A DNA stretch of 64,000 nucleotides from Escherichia coli (GTDB lineage: Bacteria > Pseudomonadota > Gammaproteobacteria > Enterobacterales > Enterobacteriaceae): NCBI RefSeq assembly GCF_050920415.1, contig NZ_CP169309.1; one strand, written 5' to 3'. Position numbers and translations under genes: made by a program. Under the pieces are notes generated by a model, which saw only the letters and a program-made list of their open reading frames with translations, ran no database searches and was not told where the DNA came from. Below, piece by piece: positions 1-57,844 of the stretch; the first letter of the stretch is position 1, and each line of letters opens with the position of its first letter.

Positions 1-1081
1 TTAACCCTCTACAGAATAACAACAACTTCAAAGGGCGTAATGTTATTGTAATCTTTGCTGAGGGATTTTCATCGGAGATTATTGGTAATTCAAAAATGGC
101 GCATTTTCCAATTACGCCTAATTTAGATAAGTTATCTACTGAAGCACTAAGTTTTAAAAATTATTATAACCATACAGCAGTAACCTTTCGAGGTTTAAGA
201 GGCCAGTTAACTTCTGGCTATCAATTTCGTGATGGGTTAACTGATGCTGGTACTGGTATTGCACAATTATCTAACGTAGAAATTAATAATATTTATCTTC
301 ATCGTCAAACATCTTTGCCGAATATATTGAAAGAGTATGGCTATAAAAGTTATTTTATAGCGTCTACAGAAAAAATAGCCCACTCAACACTATGTTGAAA
401 ACGCTTAATTTTGATAAAGTTCTTGGTATGGGAGATTTTATTGGTTATCAACGCGACAGAATGACTGATAAGCAAACATTTAATGCACTGCAATATTTTT
501 TACGTTCTCAAGAAAATAAAAACGAACGCTTTTTTATTGGTGTGTACCCATCTGGTACTCATCATGGTCAAGATAGTCCAAATGAAAAATATTTTGATGG
601 TAGCAATCCTCTCTACAATAAATTCTATAACTATGATTTTCAGTTGGGGAAGTTTGTTGATTTTTTTCGGCGCAGTTCATTTTATGGCAATACGTTGTTG
701 ATAATTACATCGGATCATTCTACATTTCCTTCGACAGAATATAAGAAATCATTTAACAGCGATTCTCGTTATTTTGTGGACAAAATACCATTTCTGATCA
801 TTGGGAAAAATATTACGCCTGAAGTTTTAGATGCAGGAGGTGAAAATTCTTTAAGTTTCGCGCCAACAATATTGCACATGTTAGGGATTCAGTATTCAAT
901 GAATTATTTTTTGGGGTGTTCTCTTTTTGATAAGACGTGCACATCACCATTCTCACATCTTTCTGCTATTGGTAGTGATTATTTCAATACAGGCAAAGAA
1001 AATCATGTTGAACTAATTCAAAATAATAGTGGTAATGAATTAATAAAATTAGCCGAACGTTTTTATAACATTAGTGGCTAA
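1..1081 (+). pseudogene. Sulfatase-family (alkaline phosphatase superfamily) phosphotransferase-like gene, 5' end outside the window, frame broken near 392-398
   Basis: Open frame from window start to 398 (NVIVIFAEGFS metal-site-like motif), then continues in another frame 392..1081 (ITSDHSTFP motif). AT-rich, as expected for an O-antigen cluster gene beside gnd. The frame break could be a sequencing error. Confidence 0.5.
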
Positions 1082-1215
1082 ATATAAAAATGTACAAGTT
1101 ACAAGCAATTTCCTAATTAGGAAATATATGACTGTAAAAGAAGATATAAATTAAGCTATTCTTTATCTTCAATAAGCCGCAACCCCGCGGTGATCACCCC
1201 TGACAGGAGTAAACA

Positions 1216-2622
1216 ATGTCAAAGCAACAGATTGGCGTAGTCGGTATGGCAGTGATGGGGCGCAACCTTGCGCTCAACATCGAAAGCCGTGGTTATACCG
1301 TCTCTATTTTCAACCGTTCCCGTGAGAAGACGGAAGAAGTGATTGCCGAAAATCCAGGCAAAAAACTGGTTCCTTACTATACGGTGAAAGAGTTTGTTGA
1401 ATCTCTGGAAACGCCTCGTCGCATCCTGTTAATGGTGAAAGCAGGTGCAGGCACGGATGCTGCTATTGATTCCCTCAAGCCATACCTCGATAAAGGTGAC
1501 ATCATCATTGATGGTGGTAATACCTTCTTCCAGGACACCATTCGTCGTAACCGTGAGCTTTCTGCCGAAGGCTTTAACTTTATCGGTACCGGTGTCTCCG
1601 GTGGTGAAGAAGGTGCGCTGAAAGGTCCTTCCATTATGCCTGGTGGCCAGAAAGAAGCCTATGAACTGGTTGCACCGATCCTGACCAAAATCGCCGCCGT
1701 TGCTGAAGACGGCGAGCCATGCGTTACCTATATTGGTGCCGATGGTGCTGGCCACTATGTGAAGATGGTTCATAACGGTATTGAATACGGCGATATGCAG
1801 CTGATTGCTGAAGCCTATTCACTGCTTAAAGGTGGCCTGAGCCTCACCAACGAAGAACTGGCTCAGACCTTTACCGAGTGGAATAACGGTGAACTAAGCA
1901 GCTACCTGATCGACATCACCAAAGATATCTTCACCAAAAAAGATGAAGACGGTAACTACCTGGTTGATGTGATTTTGGATGAAGCAGCAAACAAAGGTAC
2001 AGGCAAATGGACCAGCCAGAGTGCGCTAGATCTCGGCGAACCGCTGTCGCTGATTACCGAGTCTGTGTTTGCACGTTATATCTCTTCTCTGAAAGATCAG
2101 CGTGTTGCCGCATCTAAAGTTCTCTCTGGCCCGCAAGGACAGCCAGCAGGCGACAAGGCTGAGTTCATCGAAAAAGTTCGCCGTGCGCTGTATCTTGGCA
2201 AAATCGTTTCTTACGCTCAGGGCTTCTCTCAGCTGCGTGCTGCGTCTGAAGAGTACAACTGGGATCTGAACTACGGCGAAATCGCGAAGATTTTCCGTGC
2301 TGGCTGCATCATTCGTGCGCAGTTCCTGCAGAAAATCACCGATGCTTATGCCGAAAATCCGCAGATCGCTAACCTGTTGCTGGCTCCTTACTTCAAGCAA
2401 ATTGCCGATGACTACCAGCAGGCGCTGCGTGATGTCGTTGCTTATGCAGTACAAAATGGTATCCCGGTTCCGACCTTCGCTGCTGCGGTTGCCTATTATG
2501 ATAGCTACCGTGCCGCTGTTTTGCCTGCGAACCTGATCCAGGCACAGCGTGACTATTTCGGTGCGCATACTTATAAGCGCATTGATAAAGAAGGTGTGTT
2601 CCATACCGAATGGCTGGATTAA
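1216..2622 (+). CDS. gnd: 6-phosphogluconate dehydrogenase, decarboxylating
   Basis: 468 aa [25 protein letters not shown]-terminus recognised as Gnd; RBS caggag upstream. Confidence 0.97.
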
Positions 2623-2648
2623 TCTGATTTAACCAACAATAAATTGAA

Positions 2649-2678
2649 GCCCGGCGTGTATTGCGCCGGTTTTTTTTT
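2649..2678 (+). terminator. Rho-independent terminator after gnd
   Basis: GC hairpin ccggcg...cgccgg followed by T9. Confidence 0.7.
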
Positions 2679-2859
2679 GCCGATTATCTTATAGACTAAA
2701 TTTCACTGCTTAATATTAACTTAATAAATATCAGCTATTCTTATAAAGAAAATCTGAATTGTTTTTTGTTGCGTTGACCATCTGACAACGTAGCGTTAAA
2801 ACTTTTAGCTCTTATCAGGATGCTAAAAACATCATGATTCACAGTTAAGTTAATTCTGA

Positions 2860-4035
<1,176 letters not shown>

Positions 4036-4044
4036 CATCCTGTT

Positions 4045-4072
4045 ATCAGGGCGATTTTCGCCCTGATTCTCT
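4045..4072 (+). terminator. Hairpin terminator after ugd
   Basis: tcagggcgattttcgccctga inverted repeat. Confidence 0.5.
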
Positions 4073-4178
4073 CATGTTCCCTTTGTAATAATTCATTATT
4101 TTTATCATTTATCCTATAGCATTCATGGCGATTATCGCTAAACTATGGCGACTTAAAATTATTTCGTCCGTTAGGGTA

Positions 4179-5159
4179 ATGATGAGAGTAGAAAATAATA
4201 ATGTTTCTGGGCAAAACCATGACCCGGAACAGATTGATTTGATTGATTTACTGGTCCAACTATGGCGTGGCAAGATGACAATCATCATTTCTGTCATTGT
4301 GGCTATAGCTCTGGCTATTGGATATTTGGCAGTAGCGAAGGAGAAATGGACGTCAACAGCAATTATCACTCAGCCCGATGTGGGGCAAATTGCTGGCTAT
4401 AACAATGCCATGAATGTTATCTATGGTCAGGCTGCACCGAAAGTATCGGATTTGCAGGAGACGTTAATTGGTCGCTTCAGTTCTGCCTTCTCTGCATTAG
4501 CAGAAACGCTGGATAATCAGGAAGAACCAGAAAAACTTACCATCGAACCTTCTGTTAAGAACCAGCAATTACCATTGACTGTTTCTTATGTTGGGCAAAC
4601 TGCAGAGGGCGCACAAATGAAGTTGGCCCAATACATTCAGCAAGTTGACGATAAAGTGAATCAAGAGCTAGAAAAGGATCTCAAGGACAACATTGCTCTG
4701 GGACGGAAAAACTTGCAGGACTCTTTAAGAACACAGGAAGTGGTTGCGCAGGAACAGAAAGATCTGCGTATCCGTCAGATTCAGGAAGCGTTGCAGTATG
4801 CGAATCAGGCGCAGGTGACAAAGCCACAAGTTCAGCAGACTGAAGATGTGACACAAGATACGTTGTTCCTTTTGGGGAGCGAAGCGCTGGAGTCGATGAT
4901 TAAGCACGAGGCGACCCGTCCGTTGGTGTTCTCGCCAAACTACTATCAGACTCGTCAAAACCTGCTGGATATCGAAAACTTAAAGGTTGATGATCTTGAT
5001 ATTCATGCTTACCGTTATGTGATGAAACCGACGTTACCTATTCGTCGCGATAGCCCGAAAAAGGCAATTACCTTGATTCTGGCGGTGCTGCTGGGCGGCA
5101 TGGTTGGCGCGGGGATTGTGCTGGGGCGTAACGCGCTGCGTAATTACAACGCGAAATAA
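4179..5159 (+). CDS. wzzB: O-antigen chain length determinant (Wzz, polysaccharide co-polymerase)
   Basis: ORF 4125..5159; start placed at internal Met (MMRVENNNV) to give about 326 aa; TM segments at both ends. Confidence 0.9.
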   Translation: MMRVENNNVSGQNHDPEQIDLIDLLVQLWRGKMTIIISVIVAIALAIGYLAVAKEKWTSTAIITQPDVGQIAGYNNAMNVIYGQAAPKVSDLQETLIGRFSSAFSALAETLDNQEEPEKLTIEPSVKNQQLPLTVSYVGQTAEGAQMKLAQYIQQVDDKVNQELEKDLKDNIALGRKNLQDSLRTQEVVAQEQKDLRIRQIQEALQYANQAQVTKPQVQQTEDVTQDTLFLLGSEALESMIKHEATRPLVFSPNYYQTRQNLLDIENLKVDDLDIHAYRYVMKPTLPIRRDSPKKAITLILAVLLGGMVGAGIVLGRNALRNYNAK

Positions 5160-5179
5160 TATTATTGTGCATTTAAGAG

Positions 5180-5217
5180 AAACGGGCAGGGTGGTGACAC
5201 CATGCCCGTTTTTTTTG
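5180..5217. terminator. Bidirectional terminator between convergent wzzB and hisI
   Basis: A-run, hairpin acgggca...tgcccgt, T8. Confidence 0.7.
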
Positions 5218-5253
5218 CCGGATGCGATGCTGGCGCATCTTATCCGGCCTACG
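5217..5253. repeat. REP (repetitive extragenic palindrome) element
   Basis: gccggatgcg...cttatccggcctac REP-type consensus. Confidence 0.6.
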
Positions 5254-5344
5254 TGTGTTGAGATAATGTGTAGGCACGATAAGCTTGCGCATCGGGCAAT
5301 GGCTCCGGGTGTGACAACAACATCACACCTGCTCAGCCCGCAAC

Positions 5345-5949
5345 TCACTGATGCCGTTTACGCAGGTTCTCAATTACCGTCGTTAAATCCAGATCCTGAT
5401 CCTGCAACAGCACCAGCAGGTGATACATCAAATCAGACGCCTCGTTGGTCAGCTCAAAGCGGTCATGTACCGTTGCTGCCAGTGCGGTTTCCACGCCTTC
5501 TTCGCCCACTTTCTGCGCAATGCGTTTAGTGCCGCTGGCATACAGTTTGGCGGTGTAAGAGGTTTCCGGGTCGGCAGATTTCCGTTCGGCGAGCAGTTGT
5601 TCCAGTTGATACAGGAACAGCCACTGGTGAGCGGTGTTGCCGAAGCAGCTGTTGGTGCCTTTGTGGCAGGTCGGGCCGATGGGATTCGCCAGCACCAGCA
5701 ATGTGTCGTTGTCGCAGTCCGGCGCAATGCTCACTACGTCGAGGAAATTGCCGGACGTTTCACCTTTGGTCCACAGTCGCTGTTTAGTGCGCGAGAAGAA
5801 GGTGACTTTGCCGCTTTCGATGGTTTTGTCCAGAGCTTCCGGATTCATATAGCCCAGCATTAGCACTTCGCCGGATACCGCGTGTTGAACAATTACCGGC
5901 ATCAATCCGTCGGTTTTTTCCCAGTCCAGTTCGCGACGTTGTTGTTCTG

Positions 5950-5956
<7 letters not shown>
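5345..5956 (-). CDS. hisI: Bifunctional phosphoribosyl-AMP cyclohydrolase / phosphoribosyl-ATP pyrophosphatase
   Basis: 203 aa, recognised HisIE; overlaps hisF stop. Confidence 0.95.
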
Positions 5957-8034
<2,078 letters not shown>

Positions 8035-8035
<1 letters not shown>

Positions 8036-9101
8036 TACAGCACTCCTTTAGACGAGGGCAGGGTATCGCCTTCCACGCGGATGGCCTGGCGCAGGGTGCG
8101 ACCAAAAGCTTTGAACAGGCTCTCTACACGGTGGTGATCATTTTTACCTTTGGTTTTCAGGTGCAGGGTCACGCCCATGGTGTATGAGAGCGAACGGAAG
8201 AAGTGCTCGATCATTTCGGTGCTGAGATCGCCTACACGCTGGTAGGTAAACTCGGCTTTATATTCCAGGTGCGGGCGACCAGAGATATCCAGCGCGCAGC
8301 GGGCAAGACATTCGTCCATCGGCAGCACAAAACCGAAGCGGCAAATACCGCGTTTGTCGCCAAGAGCTATTTTTAACGCTTCGCCCAGCGCCAGACCGGT
8401 ATCTTCGACAGTGTGGTGATCGTCGATATAGAGGTCGCCTTTAACGTTGATTTCCATCCGGAAGCCGCCGTGGGTAGCAATCTGATCCAGCATGTGATCA
8501 AAGAAGCCAACGCCGGTGTTAATCTTGCTGCCGCCTTCGCGATCCAGCCACACCTGAACGTCAATCTGCGTCTCTTTGGTATTACGCACTACGTGAGCGT
8601 AACGATCGCGTTTAGTGAGCTGTTCGCCAATCATTGGCCAGTTCAGGGTTTCGCGGTCGTAGCGTAAACCATTAATGCCCATGTTTTCCGCCAGTTGAAT
8701 ATCGGTCGCGCGATCGCCAATTACATAACTGTTAGCGCGATCCATCGCTTGCTCAGCCAGGTAACGTTCCACCAGTTTTACTTTCGGCTTACGGCAGTCG
8801 CACTCATCGGCGGGCAAGTGCGGGCAAATCAGCACTTCATCAAACTGCACGCCTTGCGAGGTGAAGATCTGCATCATCAGATTGTGCGGGCCATCGAAAT
8901 CCGCCTGCGGGAAACTTTGTGTTCCCAGACCATCCTGATTAGTGATCATCACCAGCTTGTAGCCCGCTTTTTGCAGCCTCAGCAGTTCCGGGATCACGCC
9001 CGGTTCAAAGGCGAGTTTGTCAAAACGGTCCACCTGAAAATCACTCGGCGGTTCGCTAATCAGGGTTCCATCGCGATCAATAAAAAGATACTTCTGACTC
9101 A

Positions 9102-9102
<1 letters not shown>
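8035..9102 (-). CDS. hisB: Bifunctional histidinol-phosphatase / imidazoleglycerol-phosphate dehydratase
   Basis: ORF 8035..9105; start at [14 protein letters not shown], 355 aa. Confidence 0.96.
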
Positions 9103-11473
<2,371 letters not shown>

Positions 11474-11478
11474 GGCGA

Positions 11479-12378
11479 TCACTCCATCATCTTCTCAATC
11501 GGCAGGACCAGGATTGAACTGGCACCCAGCGCTTTCAGTTTTTCCATCGTTTCCCAGAACAGGGTTTCGCTGCTGACCATGTGCATCGCTACGCGCTGTT
11601 GATCACCCGCCAGCGGTAGAATGGTTGGGCGTTCGGCACCTGGCAGCAGGGCGATGACTTCATCCAGTCGGTCGGTTGGTGCGTGCATCATGATGTATTT
11701 TGATTCGCGCGCCTGGATCACGCCCTGAATACGCGTCAGCAGTTTGTCGATCAGTTGCTGTTTGGATTCTTCCATTTCGCCATCGCGTTGGATCAGGCAG
11801 GCTTTCGAGCGGTAGATAACTTCGACTTCGCGCAGGCCGTTAGCTTCCAGCGTGGCACCGGTGGAAACCAGATCGCAAATCGCATCCGCCAGTCCGGCGC
11901 GCGGCGCAACTTCGACAGAACCGTTCAGTAAGCAGGATTTAAAAGAGATGCCTTTCTGATCGAGATAACGCTTGAGCAGGTGAGGATAAGAGGTGGCGAT
12001 ACGTTTACCGTTTAAGGAGAGCGGGCCGTCCCAGGCTTCATCAACCGGCGTTGCCAGCGAAAGGCGGCAGCCGCCGAAATCCAGACGACGCAGGGTAAAG
12101 TAGCGAGGATCTTCACCCTGGGCGCGGCGGTTAAGCAGCTCTTCTTCCAGCACGTTTTCGCCGATAATCCCAAGGTCAACCACGCCGTCCATTACCAGAC
12201 CGGGAATGTCGTCGTCACGCACGCGCAGAATATCAATCGGCATGTTTTCTGCCATCGCGATCAGGCGCTGGGTGTGAAGATTAATTTTAATGCCGCAGCG
12301 CGCCAGTAATTCGCGTGAGTCATCACTTAAACGGCCGGATTTCTGCATAGCTATGCGTAAACGAGTGTTGTCTGTCAT
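11479..12378 (-). CDS. hisG: ATP phosphoribosyltransferase
   Basis: ORF 11479..12417; start at [17 protein letters not shown], 299 aa. Confidence 0.96.
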
Positions 12379-12422
12379 TTTCTTATTCCTCTTTAAACCT
12401 GTCTGAACCGTTATCAACCGCG

Positions 12423-12460
12423 CAATAAAAAAGCCCCCGGAAGGTGATCTTCCGGGGGCT
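12423..12460 (-). terminator. his operon attenuator terminator
   Basis: On minus strand: hairpin agcccccggaagatcaccttccgggggct followed by U-run, between hisL and hisG. Confidence 0.85.
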
Positions 12461-12523
12461 TTCTCATACGTTCATGCACCACTGGAAGATCTGAATGTCT
12501 TCCAGCACACATCGCCTGAAAGA

Positions 12524-12574
12524 CTAGTCAGGATGATGGTGATGATGGTGGTGTTTAAATTGAACGCGTGTCAT
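12524..12574 (-). CDS. hisL: his operon leader peptide (7 consecutive His codons)
   Basis: Minus strand ATGACACGCGTTCAATTTAAACACCACCATCATCACCATCATCCTGACTAG read directly = MTRVQFKHHHHHHHPD. Confidence 0.92.
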   Translation of the reverse strand: MTRVQFKHHHHHHHPD

Positions 12575-12797
12575 AAAAGTCTCTGTGAATGTTTATTCAA
12601 CTGATGTCTTTTAACCTAAACCACTTTCACGTTAGAAAGCAAGGGCTTTTTTATATATTTTATGGCGATGGATTTGTTTAATGAATGAGCGGGGAAAGGA
12701 GAGGGCCAGGAGTGGCTACGTTAAAAAAGTAATCGTGAAAATATGTCTTTAAAACCCTCAAGAACATTGTGTTCTGTAACTAAAGTGGGCTTGGTTC

Positions 12798-12897
12798 CTG
12801 CCGGATGCGGCGTGAATGCCTTATCTGGTCTACAAATGTTGCCTAAATTCAATATATTGATGTTTTTGTAGGACTGATAAGCGGAGCGCATCAGGCA
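12798..12897. repeat. BIME-like pair of REP elements
   Basis: ccggatgcggcgtgaatgccttatctggtctac and gactgataagcggagcgcatcaggc, REP-type palindromes. Confidence 0.5.
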
Positions 12898-13000
12898 ATT
12901 GTATATTTGCTAACAGTTTCGATTTCATTCATAGAATGAATTGTCAGTTTTGATACGCTAGCGTAGCCTTATAGATCTAAGGTGTATCAGGAGATAACGG

Positions 13001-13825
13001 ATGAAAAAGGTCGCAATTGTCGGGTTAGGGTGGTTAGGTATGCCGCTAGCGATGTCACTTTCAGCGCGAGGCTGGCAAGTCACCGGGAGTAAAACCACAC
13101 AAGATGGCGTCGAAGCGGCCCGAATGAGTGGCATTGATAGTTATCTGCTTCGCATGGAACCTGAGTTAGTTTGCGATTCTGACGATCTGGATGCCCTGAT
13201 GGATGCTGATGCGCTGGTCATCACGCTTCCGGCACGTCGTAGCGGCCCCGGCGATGAGTTCTATTTACAAGCGGTACAAGAGTTAGTGGATAGTGCGCTG
13301 GCTCATCATATTCCCCGCATTATTTTTACCAGCTCAACGTCTGTCTATGGCGACGCACAAGGCACCGTTAAAGAAACGACCCCGCGTAATCCGGTGACCA
13401 ACAGTGGACGAGTATTAAAAGAACTTGAAGACTGGCTGCACAATTTACCCGGTACTTCAGTCGATATTCTGCGTCTTGCGGGCCTGGTCGGGCCGGAACG
13501 TCATCCTGGTCGCTTTTTTGCCGGAAAAACCGCGCCTGATGGTGAACATGGTGTCAATTTAGTCCATTTAGAAGATGTTATTGGCGCTATCACCCTGTTG
13601 TTACAGGCACCTAAAGGCGGACACATCTATAATATATGTGCGCCAGCTCACCCTGCGCGTAATGTTTTCTATCCGCAGATGGCCCGTTTACTGGGACTGG
13701 AACCTCCGCAGTTCAGAAATAGTCTGGACAGCGGCAAAGGTAAGATTATTGATGGCAGTCGGATTTGTAATGAACTGGGATTTGAATACCAGTATCCCGA
13801 TCCGCTGGTAATGCCGCTGGAGTAA
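13001..13825 (+). CDS. yeeZ: NAD(P)-binding epimerase/dehydratase-family protein
   Basis: 274 aa, N-terminal GxxGxxG-like MKKVAIVGLGWLG. Confidence 0.85.
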   Translation: MKKVAIVGLGWLGMPLAMSLSARGWQVTGSKTTQDGVEAARMSGIDSYLLRMEPELVCDSDDLDALMDADALVITLPARRSGPGDEFYLQAVQELVDSALAHHIPRIIFTSSTSVYGDAQGTVKETTPRNPVTNSGRVLKELEDWLHNLPGTSVDILRLAGLVGPERHPGRFFAGKTAPDGEHGVNLVHLEDVIGAITLLLQAPKGGHIYNICAPAHPARNVFYPQMARLLGLEPPQFRNSLDSGKGKIIDGSRICNELGFEYQYPDPLVMPLE

Positions 13826-13870
13826 ACGATCACGCCAGCAGGACGCCGCATGCACTGCAAGGGGGCGTGT

Positions 13871-14800
13871 ATGAAACCACTGCTGGATGTGTTGATGATC
13901 CTCGATGCCTTAGAAAAAGAAGGCAGTTTTGCGGCGGCGTCGGCCAAACTCTATAAGACGCCGTCTGCTCTGAGTTACACCGTTCACAAGCTGGAAAGCG
14001 ACCTTAATATTCAATTGCTTGATCGTAGCGGTCACCGCGCAAAATTCACCCGCACCGGAAAAATGTTATTAGAGAAGGGGCGGGAAGTTCTGCATACCGT
14101 GCGAGAACTGGAAAAACAGGCGATAAAACTGCATGAAGGCTGGGAAAACGAGCTGGTGATTGGCGTGGACGACACGTTTCCTTTTTCTCTGCTTGCGCCA
14201 CTCATTGAAGCTTTTTATCAACATCATAGCGTGACGCGCCTGAAGTTTATCAATGGCGTACTCGGTGGTTCATGGGATGCCCTGACTCAGGGGCGAGCGG
14301 ATATTATTGTTGGCGCGATGCATGAGCCACCATCTTCCAGTGAGTTTGGTTTCTCACGGTTGGGCGATCTTGAACAAGTCTTTGCGGTCGCGCCCCATCA
14401 TCCGTTAGCCCAGGAAGAAGAACCGTTAAACCGTCGTATCATTAAGCGATATAGGGCGATTGTGGTAGGGGATACTGCGCAGGCAGGCGCTTCTACGGCC
14501 TCGCAACTTCTCGACGAACAAGAAGCCATTACCGTTTTCGATTTTAAAACCAAGCTGGAGCTGCAAATTAGCGGCCTCGGCTGCGGCTATTTACCCCGTT
14601 ATCTGGCACAACGTTTTCTCGATAGTGGCGCGTTAATCGAGAAGAAAGTGGTCGCCCAAACTCTCTTTGAACCTGTCTGGATTGGCTGGAACGAACAGAC
14701 CGCAGGACTTGCCAGCGCCTGGTGGCGAGACGAGATTTTAGCAAATAGTGCGATCGCCGGTGTTTATGCAAAATCTGATGACGGAAAATCAGCCATTTAA
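13871..14800 (+). CDS. yeeY: LysR-family transcriptional regulator
   Basis: ORF 13850..14800; start at MKPLLDVLMILDALEKEGSFAAAS (HTH), 309 aa. Confidence 0.85.
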   Translation: MKPLLDVLMILDALEKEGSFAAASAKLYKTPSALSYTVHKLESDLNIQLLDRSGHRAKFTRTGKMLLEKGREVLHTVRELEKQAIKLHEGWENELVIGVDDTFPFSLLAPLIEAFYQHHSVTRLKFINGVLGGSWDALTQGRADIIVGAMHEPPSSSEFGFSRLGDLEQVFAVAPHHPLAQEEEPLNRRIIKRYRAIVVGDTAQAGASTASQLLDEQEAITVFDFKTKLELQISGLGCGYLPRYLAQRFLDSGALIEKKVVAQTLFEPVWIGWNEQTAGLASAWWRDEILANSAIAGVYAKSDDGKSAI

Positions 14801-15066
14801 AGAAAAATTATTATGACAAGCCTCTCATTCTCTTGTCATTTCCCCCCCATTTAGGCACAATGCGCCGCTGTCAAAAAATGACTAAAAACCGACGTTTAAT
14901 TAGCGTCGGTTATTTTTTGCTTCAAACCAATCATTCATACCAAGAGGCCGGGCTTCGTACCGGATAGATATTTACTAAAAATCGACAGTTGTTGTCGCTG
15001 AGGAATCCAAAAAAATGGGGCAATTTTTTGCTTACGCGACGGTTATTACCGTAAAGGAGAATGACC

Positions 15067-16425
15067 ATGTCGCATAACGTTACTCCAAACACCTCTCGCG
15101 TGGAATTGCGTAAAACGCTTACGTTAGTTCCGGTTGTAATGATGGGTCTTGCCTATATGCAGCCGATGACGCTGTTTGATACATTTGGTATCGTTTCAGG
15201 CCTCACGGATGGTCATGTGCCGACAGCCTATGCGTTCGCATTGATTGCGATCCTGTTTACGGCTCTGAGCTACGGGAAGCTGGTTCGCCGCTATCCTTCT
15301 GCTGGCTCTGCATACACTTACGCCCAGAAATCCATTAGCCCGACCGTCGGCTTTATGGTGGGTTGGTCTTCTCTGCTCGACTATCTGTTCGCGCCGATGA
15401 TCAACATTCTGCTGGCGAAAATCTATTTTGAAGCTCTGGTGCCTTCCATCCCATCGTGGATGTTTGTGGTGGCGCTGGTGGCCTTTATGACCGCCTTTAA
15501 CCTGCGTAGTCTGAAATCCGTAGCGAACTTCAACACCGTCATCGTGGTGTTGCAGGTAGTGCTGATCGCGGTGATTCTGGGCATGGTTGTTTATGGCGTA
15601 TTTGAAGGTGAAGGCGCTGGTACGCTGGCGAGCACTCGTCCGTTCTGGTCTGGCGATGCGCATGTTATTCCGATGATTACCGGGGCGACAATCCTGTGCT
15701 TCTCCTTTACCGGCTTTGACGGCATCAGCAACCTGTCGGAAGAAACCAAAGATGCAGAGCGCGTGATCCCGCGTGCGATTTTCCTGACCGCGCTGATCGG
15801 CGGCATGATCTTCATCTTTGCAACTTACTTCCTGCAACTGTATTTCCCGGATATCTCTCGCTTTAAAGATCCGGATGCGTCACAGCCTGAAATCATGCTG
15901 TACGTTGCGGGTAAAGCGTTCCAGGTTGGCGCGCTGATCTTCTCCACCATTACCGTACTGGCGTCCGGTATGGCGGCGCACGCAGGCGTGGCGCGTCTGA
16001 TGTACGTAATGGGTCGTGACGGCGTATTCCCGAAAAGCTTCTTCGGTTATGTGCACCCGAAATGGCGTACTCCGGCAATGAACATCATCCTGGTTGGCGC
16101 GATTGCTCTGCTGGCAATCAACTTCGACCTGGTAATGGCTACGGCGCTGATTAACTTTGGTGCGCTGGTGGCGTTCACCTTCGTTAACCTGTCGGTTATC
16201 TCGCAGTTCTGGATCCGTGAGAAGCGTAACAAGACGCTGAAAGATCACTTCCAGTATCTGTTCCTGCCGATGTGTGGTGCGCTGACTGTAGGTGCGCTGT
16301 GGGTTAACCTGGAAGAAAGCTCAATGGTTCTGGGGCTGATCTGGGCGGCAATCGGTCTGATTTACCTGGCTTGCGTCACCAAGAGCTTCCGTAACCCGGT
16401 TCCGCAGTACGAAGACGTTGCATAA
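15067..16425 (+). CDS. plaP: Putrescine importer (APC-family amino acid/polyamine permease)
   Basis: ORF 15061..16425; start at [16 protein letters not shown], 452 aa, multi-TM. Confidence 0.9.
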
Positions 16426-24957: not shown

Positions 24958-27208
24958 ATGATGCGTCGTGTAAATATTTTTTGCTCATTTGCTCTACTTT
25001 TTGCCAGCCATAATAGCCTGGCGGTAACTTATCCATTACCTCCAGAGGGTAGCCGTTTAGTGGGACAGTCGCTTACTGTAACTGTTCCTGATCACAATAC
25101 CCAGCCGCTGGAGACTTTTGCCGCACAATACGGGCAAGGGTTAAGTAACATGCTGGAAGCGAATCCGGGGGCTGATGTCTTCTTACCGAAGTCTGGCTCG
25201 CAACTCACCATTCCGCAGCAACTGATTTTGCCCGCCACTGTTCGTAAAGGGATTGTGATTAACGTCGCTGAGATGCGTCTTTATTACTACCCGCCAGACA
25301 GTAATACTGTGGAAGTCTTTCCTATTGGTATCGGCCAGGCTGGGCGAGAAACCCCGCGTAACTGGGTGACTACCGTTGAACGTAAACAAGAAGCACCAAC
25401 CTGGACGCCAACGCCGAACACCCGGCGCGAATATGCGAAACGAGGGGAGAGTTTGCCCGCATTTGTTCCTGCGGGGCCTGATAATCCCATGGGGCTGTAC
25501 GCGATTTATATTGGCAGGCTATATGCCATCCACGGTACCAATGCCAATTTTGGTATTGGGCTCCGGGTAAGTCAGGGCTGTATTCGTCTGCGCAATGACG
25601 ATATCAAATATCTGTTTGATAATGTTCCTGTAGGTACTCGTGAACCGCCCCGGAAATCCTGGAGACTAAACTTCCTGAGAAAGAGGTAAACAGGATGACT
25701 AAAAATACTCGTTTTTCCCCCGAAGTCCGTCAACGCGCAGTTCGTATGGTTCTGGAAAGTCAGGGCGAATATGACTCACAATGGGCGGCAATTTGTTCCA
25801 TTGCTCCAAAGATTGGCTGTACGCCAGAGACTCTGCGTGTCTGGGTTCGCCAGCATGAGAGGGATACCGGGAGCGGTGATGGTGGGCTCACCACCGCTGA
25901 ACGTCAGCGTCTGAAAGAGCTGGAACGTGAAAATCGTGAACTGCGCCGCAGTAACGATATCCTTCGCCAGGCTTCCGCTTATTTTGCGAAGGCGGAGTTC
26001 GACCGCCTCTGGAAAAAATAATGCCACTGCTGGATAAGCTGCGTGAGCAGTACGGGGTCGGACCGGTATGCAGTGAACTGCATATTGCCCCGTCAACGTA
26101 TTACCATTGTCAGCAGCAGCGGCATCATCCTGATAAACGCAGTGCCCGTGCGCAGCGCGATGACTGGCTGAAGAGAGAGATACAGCGCGTATACGATGAA
26201 AATCATCAGGTGTACGGTGTGCGTAAAGTCTGGCGTCAGTTGTTACGGGAAGGAATCAGGGTGGCCAGATGTACAGTGGCGCGCCTCATGGCGGTTATGG
26301 GACTTGCCGGTGTTCTCCGGGGTAAAAAGGTCCGCACTACCGTCAGCCGGAAAACCGTTGCCACAGGTGACCGCGTAAACCGTCAGTTCGTGGCAGAACG
26401 TCCTGACCAGCTGTGGGTGGCTGATTTTACTTACGTCAGCACATGGCAGGGCTTCGTCTATGTGGCGTTCATCATTGATGTGTTTGCCGGATACATCGTG
26501 GGGTGGCGGGTCTCATCGTCTATGGAAACGACATTCGTGCTGGATGCGCTGGAGCAGGCGTTGTGGGCCCGTCGTCCGTCTGGCACCATCCATCACAGCG
26601 ATAAAGGCTCTCAGTATGTGTCACTGGCCTATACGGAGCGACTAAAAGAAGCAAAACTGCTGGCATCAACAGGGAGTACAGGCGACTCGTATGACAACGC
26701 GATGGCTGAGAGCATCAATGGTCTTTACAAAGCGGAGGTAATACACCGTAAGAGCTGGAAAAACCGTGCAGAAGTGGAACTGGCCACACTCACGTGGGTG
26801 GACTGGTATAACAATCGACGATTGCTGGGAAGGCTGGGCCATACTCCTCCGGCAGAAGCAGAAAAAGCTTATTATGCTTCCATCGGAAACAATGATCTGG
26901 CAGCCTGAGTTCACAGATAAAACACTCTCCAGGAAACCCGGGGCGGTTCAACTCGTGTACAAATTATTGATCAGCCAGTGAAATACACAACGGAACCGGA
27001 TGGATCAAAGTGGCTGGAAGTTCATGAGCCACTGTCGCGCAACCGTGCGGAATATGAGTCAGACCGAAAAGTGCCTTTGCCAGTAACGCCATCTTTGCGG
27101 ACGTTCATTAACGGGCAAGAAGTTGATGTGAATCGCGCAAATGCTGCATTGCAGCGCCGATCAGGAATGCCTGTGCAAATTAGTTCTGGTTCAAGACAGA
27201 TGTTTTAA
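24958..27208 (+). pseudogene. ldtA: L,D-transpeptidase LdtA (ErfK) interrupted by an IS element; 5' part 24958..25640, 3' part 26951..27208
   Basis: N-terminal ORF ends ...DNVPVGTR at the IS boundary; the reading frame resumes exactly after the IS as TRVQIIDQPVKYTTEPDGS...SGSRQMF. Confidence 0.9.
25641..26950 (+). mobile_element. IS3-family insertion sequence, IS629/IS1203-like, 1310 bp, with orfA 25695..26021 and orfB 26021..26908
   Basis: Terminal inverted repeats TGAACCGCCCCGG...CCGGGGCGGTTCA; orfA (108 aa, HTH) and orfB (295 aa, DDE transposase) overlap at an A-rich slippery region; flanked by direct repeat ACTCG. Confidence 0.92.
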
Positions 27209-37330: not shown

Positions 37331-37706
37331 AGGGTAATGCCGATCTATGCTGAACAGGGGACATTAATACCCTGAGGTTGGTCAATCACCACAAAAAAAG
37401 CCTTTGAATCAAAGCAATACTCACCGAATAATAAGGCAACCTGAACTTAAATCCCCGTTAACTGCCATACATTATTATGACTTGCACTGATGTAATTAGC
37501 TAAACATTATCGTGATTTGACTAAATAGCAAAAATGATAGCTATTAAAAATAGCTCATATACTTTGTTTCCCGCTGCCGTAGAATAGATGGTCCTTCCAT
37601 GTTCAAGCATTTATTCAAAAAAAGGGGGCTCGACTGTCTTCAGATAAACAGAGAGGGATTGTAAAGTCGAGTGCCCCTAATGGAGCACTCTATAAAAAAT
37701 CAACAA

Positions 37707-45695
<7,989 letters not shown>

Positions 45696-57652: not shown

Positions 57653-57844
57653 AACAGTTTCCTCCAGAGTTATTGTACATGACGTGTTATGTTATATTGT
57701 AACATATGACGAAATGCAATAACTCTTAGGAAACAAGAGCATAGTTTTCTCAGGTGTATTTACCTATCTTATTGAAATGAAATAAATTATGTCGATGATT
57801 TGAGGTTGATGACAAACGAAACATAACTTGATGCGATCTGTGTG

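Follow-up and report, generated by a model that had tools for sequence, protein, structure and literature searches.

The window analysed here, a stretch of 64,000 nucleotides of Escherichia coli DNA (one strand of contig NZ_CP169309.1), opens inside an AT-rich gene that ends at position 1081. This gene is followed by an intergenic stretch at 1082-1215 (+), placed from the window sequence and the annotation, and by an intact gnd (6-phosphogluconate dehydrogenase) at 1216-2622 (+), placed from the ORF list and the annotation, which marks the end of the O-antigen region. Judged by sequence comparison, positions 1-1081 (+) are the 3' two-thirds of wekS, the last and gnd-proximal gene of the E. coli O2/O50 O-antigen cluster. 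A megablast search with window positions 1-1215 against 5,426 complete E. coli genomes gave a match in 166, all of them chromosomal, and 61 of these 166 matched at 99% identity or more (99.2-100%). MFDS1022581 and N96 were 100% identical to the window over 1-1215, and genomes typed as O2, O2:H6 and O2:K2:H1 showed 99.2-99.3% identity. The window does not reach the upstream part of the cluster, the gene order of which was taken from the matching genomes inspected. In these, rfbBDA, fdtA/C/B-type genes and wzx and wzy annotated by PGAP as 'O2/O50 family' are followed by three genes of glycosyltransferase type (for a GT4, a GT2 and a DUF1972 protein), then by an ISAs1 transposase and finally by wekS. 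The last ORF of the O2 cluster of G1674 (GU299792) has been named wekS (PMC5293828). The window gene occupies the same place, from ISAs1 to gnd, as wekS of O2 and O50, with at least 99.2% nucleotide identity to O2-typed genomes. It stands at the cluster end, adjoins gnd, has O2/O50-type wzx and wzy upstream and is nearly identical in sequence, all of which places it in O2/O50 wekS. A reading made from the letters of the window alone (the sequence-only reading) had put an AT-rich gene at the gnd-proximal end of an O-antigen cluster that is not the one of K-12. Both points were borne out: the wzx and wzy of the matching genomes identify the cluster as O2/O50, and the GC content was 33% in wekS versus about 50% in the adjacent gnd.

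Copies of wekS with 86-89% identity, with ISAs1 before and gnd after the gene, were present in O10:H32 and also in further O2/O50-type clusters that form a second set; those of HM670 (O2:H1) and APEC E18055 (O2:K1:H7) are examples of the latter. The mosaic cluster of the O1-variant strain A47 has been described to end with a 91%-identical wekS copy (PMC5293828). One or more ISAs1 (ISEc1/H-repeat) copies were always present 5' of the wekS-type gene, and gnd 3' of it (L002:12245-15082, L004:11501-15629, L005:11429-14629). The order ISAs1-wekS-gnd is common to O2/O50, to the second O2/O50-type set (87% allele), to O10 and, from its published description, to the O1 variant A47 (PMC5293828). It looks as if wekS, linked to an IS, travels as a module among O-antigen clusters (those of O2/O50, O10 and the O1 variant). 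In all O2/O50 genomes inspected, PGAP divides the fdtC-type acetyltransferase gene further upstream, between fdtA and fdtB, into two partial pseudogenes (L001:4385-4845, L002:4392-4852). A single frame is open throughout this interval and reads as a complete hexapeptide-repeat acetyltransferase, and the pseudogene call is probably artefactual, caused in annotation by a start that is unusual or overlaps. The O50-type His-to-Arg exchange in FdtB was considered as a means of telling O2 from O50 and was discarded, no such difference being seen among the three alleles compared.

The window was further compared with MFDS1022581 and N96. The window and MFDS1022581 were identical over 1-15215 and then showed five small differences and one IS2 copy, which is located between zinT and msrQ in MFDS1022581 and is absent from the window at about 57723-57730; the window therefore derives from a very close relative of MFDS1022581 and not from that genome itself. 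Compared with N96, both were identical through wekS and gnd and then diverged, with 45 differences in ugd and 128 in wzzB (window 2869-5159), a change that marks a recombination boundary immediately 3' of gnd. In N96, an IS621 additionally separates wzzB from hisIE. At about 24958-27206 of the window (mapped from the MFDS1022581 annotation) an IS3-family element interrupts an L,D-transpeptidase gene, and an intact gene of about 8 kb at about 37705-45693 (-) codes for a 2662-aa protein with Ig-like domains, with internal repeats of about 85% identity near 41362-42660; a glycosyltransferase family 9 gene adjoins it.

In the window wekS is read in two frames. The upstream piece (1-398, +, frame 3) comprises, in translation, codons 184-307 of 542 followed by seven out-of-frame codons. 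Three-frame translation places its first complete codon at bases 3-5 and a premature TGA at 396-398. The start of this N-fragment lies 547 nt upstream of the window; its 314 residues, of which the last seven form the aberrant tail IAHSTLC after 307 native ones, are identical to those of WP_001354753.1, a CDS that RefSeq lists as 'sulfatase-like hydrolase/transferase' in both MFDS1022581 and N96. The downstream piece (392-1081, +, frame 2), taken from the ORF list, corresponds to residues 314-542 (229 aa). Its frame is open from about 347, with an ATG at 392-394 and the native stop TAA at 1079-1081, and it appears in RefSeq as a second 'sulfatase-like hydrolase/transferase' CDS. Alignments to intact alleles place the site of the -1 frameshift at an A6 homopolymer at 370-375 (+), which falls in the short overlap of the two open frames, and A7 versus A6 is the sole length difference between the intact alleles (e.g. 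that of PSUO2) and the window. The intact A7 tract is found at gene position 917-923, in the codons GAA AAA AAT of E306-K307-N308, and together with a T7 run at 1209 is the longest homopolymer of wekS.

The Pfam Sulfatase profile PF00884 is divided by the same break. Profile positions 1-99 were found on the upstream piece (E 5e-12, 46.1 bits) and 130-301 on the downstream piece (E 4e-11, 43.1 bits); the intact 542-aa protein covers positions 1-301 in one stretch (E 2.6e-26, 93.1 bits). With a gathering cut-off of 25 bits, intact WekS and both window fragments score above threshold, and the split of the profile across the break is far beyond chance. Since one 542-aa protein and one PF00884 domain account for both pieces, the proposal in the sequence-only reading of a single sulfatase/alkaline-phosphatase-superfamily gene broken at a run of A is confirmed, as are the stop at 396-398 and the continuation in a second frame from 392; the first frame, however, starts at base 3 and not at base 1. 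Programmed -1 frameshifting was considered and rejected, as the A6 run in frame (GAA AAA ATA) forms no canonical X XXY YYZ heptamer. At low level, the frame may be restored by slippage of the polymerase or the ribosome at this run. We are highly confident that wekS in the window is a genuine frameshift pseudogene. The lesion itself is already visible in public annotation, RefSeq listing two adjacent CDS.

The frequency of the A6 allele was determined with a 91-base probe across the tract, which matched 70 complete genomes of O2/O50 type. Exact A6 was present in 7 of the 70 (about 10%), representing six strains with SCU-101 deposited twice. The other 53 matches listed span 92 bases and thus carry A7, and no A8 allele was seen among the probe matches listed in complete genomes. 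The A6 carriers are distributed over at least two wekS haplotypes, the window haplotype being 12 SNPs away from the common one, and A6 has at least two independent origins. On the common haplotype, A6 is found in PG20180057 with no other change, in SCU-101 and C237-04 together with the synonymous A357G, and in HCP4S3_I4 together with two SNPs. For this haplotype the N-fragment was counted on 226 contigs; for the intact protein the count was at least 1000. PG20180057 (O2:H6, mouse gut) differed from NC101 and PSUO2 by one base (an A) over the 5.7 kb of wekS-gnd-ugd-wzzB; its A6 is either a recent independent event or an assembly error.

These data bear on the idea that the A7 tract is a contingency site, at which reversible slippage between A7 and A6 would turn WekS on or off and make the surface modification of O2 lineages heterogeneous. 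The occurrence of A6 on more than one haplotype and in 7 of 70 complete genomes, the near-clonal pair of PG20180057 and NC101/PSUO2, and the conservation of the A7 tract in three alleles that are about 13% divergent in nucleotides would all be in line with such a switch. We nevertheless consider it very unlikely. A tract of seven is short for this purpose and is simply what the codons GAA AAA AAT spell, and the approximately 97 genomes with 86-89% alleles carry the same A7 and are nearly all annotated as intact. Neither A8 nor reversion was observed, the latter in that no intact allele with the 357G marker of the SCU-101/C237-04 A6 clade was found among complete genomes. In the window lineage, A6 was stable across many assemblies and was accompanied by further damaging substitutions, a pattern that fits decay and not switching.

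The A6 of the window lineage is a real, vertically inherited mutation, because it is shared by independent assemblies, is present in old accessions and has an intact allele of the ancestral type on the same haplotype. Seven independent assemblies all carried A6 with 0-1 differences from window positions 1-2622. One was a complete chromosome of 5.3 Mb and the rest were contigs of 74-612 kb; the 2011 draft AEXD01 (GCA_000194575.2) is among the seven. Protein records matched the window haplotype exactly on 36 contigs for the 314-aa N-fragment and on 80 for the 229-aa C-fragment, the oldest accessions being from 2011; the fragment proteins EGB63571.1 and EGB63570.1 are consecutive accessions. MFDS1022581 (Korean food) and N96 (Tibetan pig) come from different sources and, as described above, differ from each other in ugd and wzzB. 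The closest intact wekS was that of Escherichia sp. HH41S (GCA_009820115.1), which has A7 on the same wekS-gnd haplotype. Only C728T (A243V), G868A (D290N) and the deleted A distinguish the window lineage from HH41S in wekS, with one further difference in the intergenic stretch and gnd. The A6 allele arose from an intact ancestor that HH41S still represents.

The sequence-only reading had left open whether the gene was inactivated or affected by a homopolymer error in sequencing or assembly, in which case it would really be intact. An error might be suspected because the gene is AT-rich and the break sits in one of its two longest homopolymers, and some other broken wekS copies in complete genomes do resemble long-read homopolymer errors. 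The T6 deletion in ETEC1717 is probably an assembly error because the sibling ETEC1718 is intact, and the 22 gaps in the wekS of SCU-484 probably reflect assembly quality; pseudogene counts from complete genomes alone are therefore inflated. Other lesions comprised deletions at position 551 and in the T7 run in TUM13773, an IS1-mediated 5' truncation in strain I3 and an IS1 insertion in one genome with the 87% allele. For the window, however, an error is extremely improbable, as the same A6 on a near-identical haplotype was recovered from the seven independent assemblies, the 2011 draft among them, and from two complete genomes of different countries, and the exact fragment proteins recur on the 36 and 80 contigs mentioned. 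In addition, broken features in the annotation of MFDS1022581 across the window span were limited to IS-related ones, gene remnants and one gene of cobalamin biosynthesis that contains an internal stop; no housekeeping gene was marked as frameshifted, and the 8-kb ORF was intact. The lineage moreover carries two extra non-synonymous changes, one of them at an invariant residue. Of the two options of the earlier reading, inactivation was thus upheld and error was not.

That the two ORFs are separate genes, or a functional split enzyme with reassembling halves, has a practically negligible probability in spite of the two RefSeq CDS without pseudogene flag and of the downstream ORF having its own ATG that overlaps the upstream stop (ATGTTGA). 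Taken together, the pieces follow the order of a single 542-aa protein, which is present on at least 1000 contigs, and of a single Pfam domain. Neither half has a homologue family of its own, shorter entries in the database being partial or truncated copies, and the independent homologues envisaged as a counter-case in the sequence-only reading did not materialize. The downstream piece has neither the anchor nor the signal peptide expected for a periplasmic enzyme, and the break cuts the AF2 model within the catalytic domain, where strand E298-306 ends.

With wekS in the window taken as a frameshift pseudogene, the consequence for the protein can be read from the conserved residues. In an alignment of 27 homologues (36-100% identity), invariant positions included E203, N239-H240-T241, A243-T244, R246, H370 and D421-H422. 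The predicted metal ligand E203 is encoded at 60-62 (+) of the window and aligns with the LtaS LES/FtEG motif. Residue 243 and T244, the predicted nucleophile, are encoded at 180-185 (+). H370 of the GTHHG motif, a predicted active-site histidine that aligns with LtaS 'sNHfp', is found at 560-562 (+), and D421 and H422 of the TSDHS motif, predicted metal ligands that align with LtaS 'GDH', at 713-718 (+). T244 aligned with the nucleophile position of the sulfatase S/C-x-P-x-R motif, and the prediction of T244 rather than T241 as the nucleophile rests on this one pairwise HMMER alignment to a sulfatase. The C728T change of the window lineage places V243 directly beside T244, where all homologues have alanine. 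An AF2 model of intact WekS (pLDDT 82.7, pTM 0.84) located the break at the end of the core-sheet strand 298-306. With the break at codon 307, E203, H240, T241 and T244 remain on the N-fragment, and H370, D421 and H422 are found on the downstream ORF. The 314-aa membrane fragment would thus keep E203 and T244 and lack H370, D421 and H422, and the 229-aa product of the downstream ORF would contain these three residues and lack the membrane anchor, an export signal and the nucleophile. We strongly infer that neither fragment is active, and the split of the active site therefore makes wekS of the window a loss-of-function pseudogene.

Intact WekS has 542 aa and is named 'LTA synthase family protein' in RefSeq, e.g. 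WP_019842891.1 in PSUO2 and NC101. Its transmembrane part lies outside the window. The AF2 model showed helices at 3-22, 26-44, 49-73, 93-112 and 126-142 (plus 146-162) and an alpha/beta domain from about residue 178, which corresponds to the predicted LtaS-family architecture of about five N-terminal transmembrane helices and an extracytoplasmic catalytic domain. The LtaS-family residues E203, T244, H370, D421 and H422 are likewise invariant among the homologues, and are distributed over two ORFs in the window allele. When a single WekS protein was compared with the PDB, the top match was 3LXQ (E 6e-18; 1e-21 with a profile), followed in the profile search by 2W8D (8e-16), 4UOP (7e-13) and 4UOO (6.5e-11), i.e. 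by B. subtilis LtaS2 and Listeria LtaP/LtaS. Foldseek comparison of the AF2 model with LtaS/LtaP gave E values of 1e-13 to 1e-16 and target-normalised TM-scores of 0.62-0.66. In the fold ranking, 3LXQ (E 5e-17) was followed by LtaP/LtaS and then by full-length PbgA/YejM, with a match spanning about 610 alignment columns; MCR-1 had rank 23. The top match in both sequence and fold, 3LXQ, is VP1736 of Vibrio parahaemolyticus, an uncharacterised member of the alkaline-phosphatase superfamily that says nothing on mechanism. The best characterised structural and profile matches were LtaS/LtaP of Firmicutes (2W5Q, 2W8D, 4UOO, 4UOP), which share with WekS the transmembrane and alkaline-phosphatase-fold architecture and the E, T, H and D-H residues. 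The identity to LtaS/LtaP is only 16-19%, however, and the host of WekS is a Gram-negative bacterium without lipoteichoic acid.

Other families of the superfamily matched less well. OpgB (MdoB), the phosphoglycerol transferase I of E. coli, likewise has a periplasmic-facing sulfatase fold, uses phosphatidylglycerol and was the best NCBIfam match of WekS. The scores were nevertheless far under the cut-offs (NF009027, 35.5 bits versus 572; NF003000, 29.9 versus 574), and the profiles have 703-763 positions versus 542 aa in WekS, which is not an OpgB orthologue. The NCBIfam profile for CptA gave 16.9 bits versus a cut-off of 404 and that for YejM/PbgA/LapC 18.1 versus 825, the likeness to the latter being structural only, and no EptA/MCR chain was found at E≤0.001 in the PDB profile search. 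On sequence comparison and modelled fold, intact WekS is an LtaS-family enzyme, closest to the LtaS-type glycerophosphotransferases and not to EptA, OpgB or YejM, and is no orthologue of OpgB, EptA/CptA or YejM. Of the two transferase types suggested from the letters alone, the phosphoglycerol type thus comes nearest, and the phosphoethanolamine type is not supported by the CptA, EptA and MCR comparisons.

WekS homologues were found across Enterobacterales (Citrobacter, Enterobacter, Salmonella, Rahnella, Serratia and others) and beyond. Between intact alleles that are about 13% divergent in nucleotides dN/dS was 0.13-0.19, and because of these low values we conclude that intact wekS is functional and maintained by purifying selection. 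Members of the LtaS family transfer glycerol-1-phosphate from phosphatidylglycerol via a phospho-Thr intermediate. WekS is an inner-membrane protein with a periplasmic alkaline-phosphatase-superfamily domain of the LtaS type. By analogy, its most likely activity would be to modify a periplasmic glycan with a phospho-alcohol head group, the most plausible donor and group being phosphatidylglycerol and its sn-glycerol-1-phosphate. Catalysis would proceed via a covalent intermediate at Thr244, with E203, D421 and H422 forming the metal site. We give the assignment of intact WekS as a glycerophosphotransferase about even chances.

The acceptor may be something other than the O antigen, because the published O2 and O50 repeat units, as described, contain no glycerophosphate, phosphoethanolamine or other phospho-substituent (PMC7685785); alternatively, the modification may be sub-stoichiometric or lost in preparation. 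[quoted passage not shown] Literature searches on O50, and on a sulfatase or phosphoglycerol transferase with O-antigen, returned nothing on WekS function. A comparable case, likened to WekS by literature description alone, is Pgt1 of Acinetobacter baumannii, also a predicted phosphoglycerol transferase that ends a surface-polysaccharide locus. At one end of the K loci it is listed as 'Phosphoglycerol transferase' with 'no defined role' in known structures, and its presence or absence leaves the capsule structure unchanged (PMC9676051). The WekS homologue P0165 of A. baumannii (41% identity) was considered as a K-locus pgt1 and ruled out, as it is carried by an 8-kb Rep_3 plasmid. P0165 has 523 aa and lies at 1957-3528 (L016) of an 8-kb contig that also codes for a Rep_3 replicase, a TraG/TrwB-like coupling protein and an integrase.

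As lesions go, the window allele is an ordinary pseudogene of an already known accessory gene. In RefSeq its two CDS ought to be merged into one pseudogene, and the practical gain is the assignment of the locus to O2/O50. A more far-reaching possibility, which we regard as improbable, is that WekS, as a periplasmic glycerophosphotransferase, modifies the O2, O10 or O1-variant O antigen or another envelope glycan with a phospho-substituent that is labile or sub-stoichiometric and was missed in structural work, and that recurrent slippage at the conserved A7 tract creates ON and OFF lineages of O2. If this were true, serology, recognition by phage and complement, and the epitopes of O2-containing ExPEC glycoconjugate vaccines would be affected. 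The intact gene is of interest in its own right: wekS is an LtaS-like, ISAs1-linked gene that has no assigned product in the known O-unit structures and yet is under selection, and the natural A7 and A6 strains NC101 and PG20180057 offer a near-isogenic pair for finding the function of WekS.
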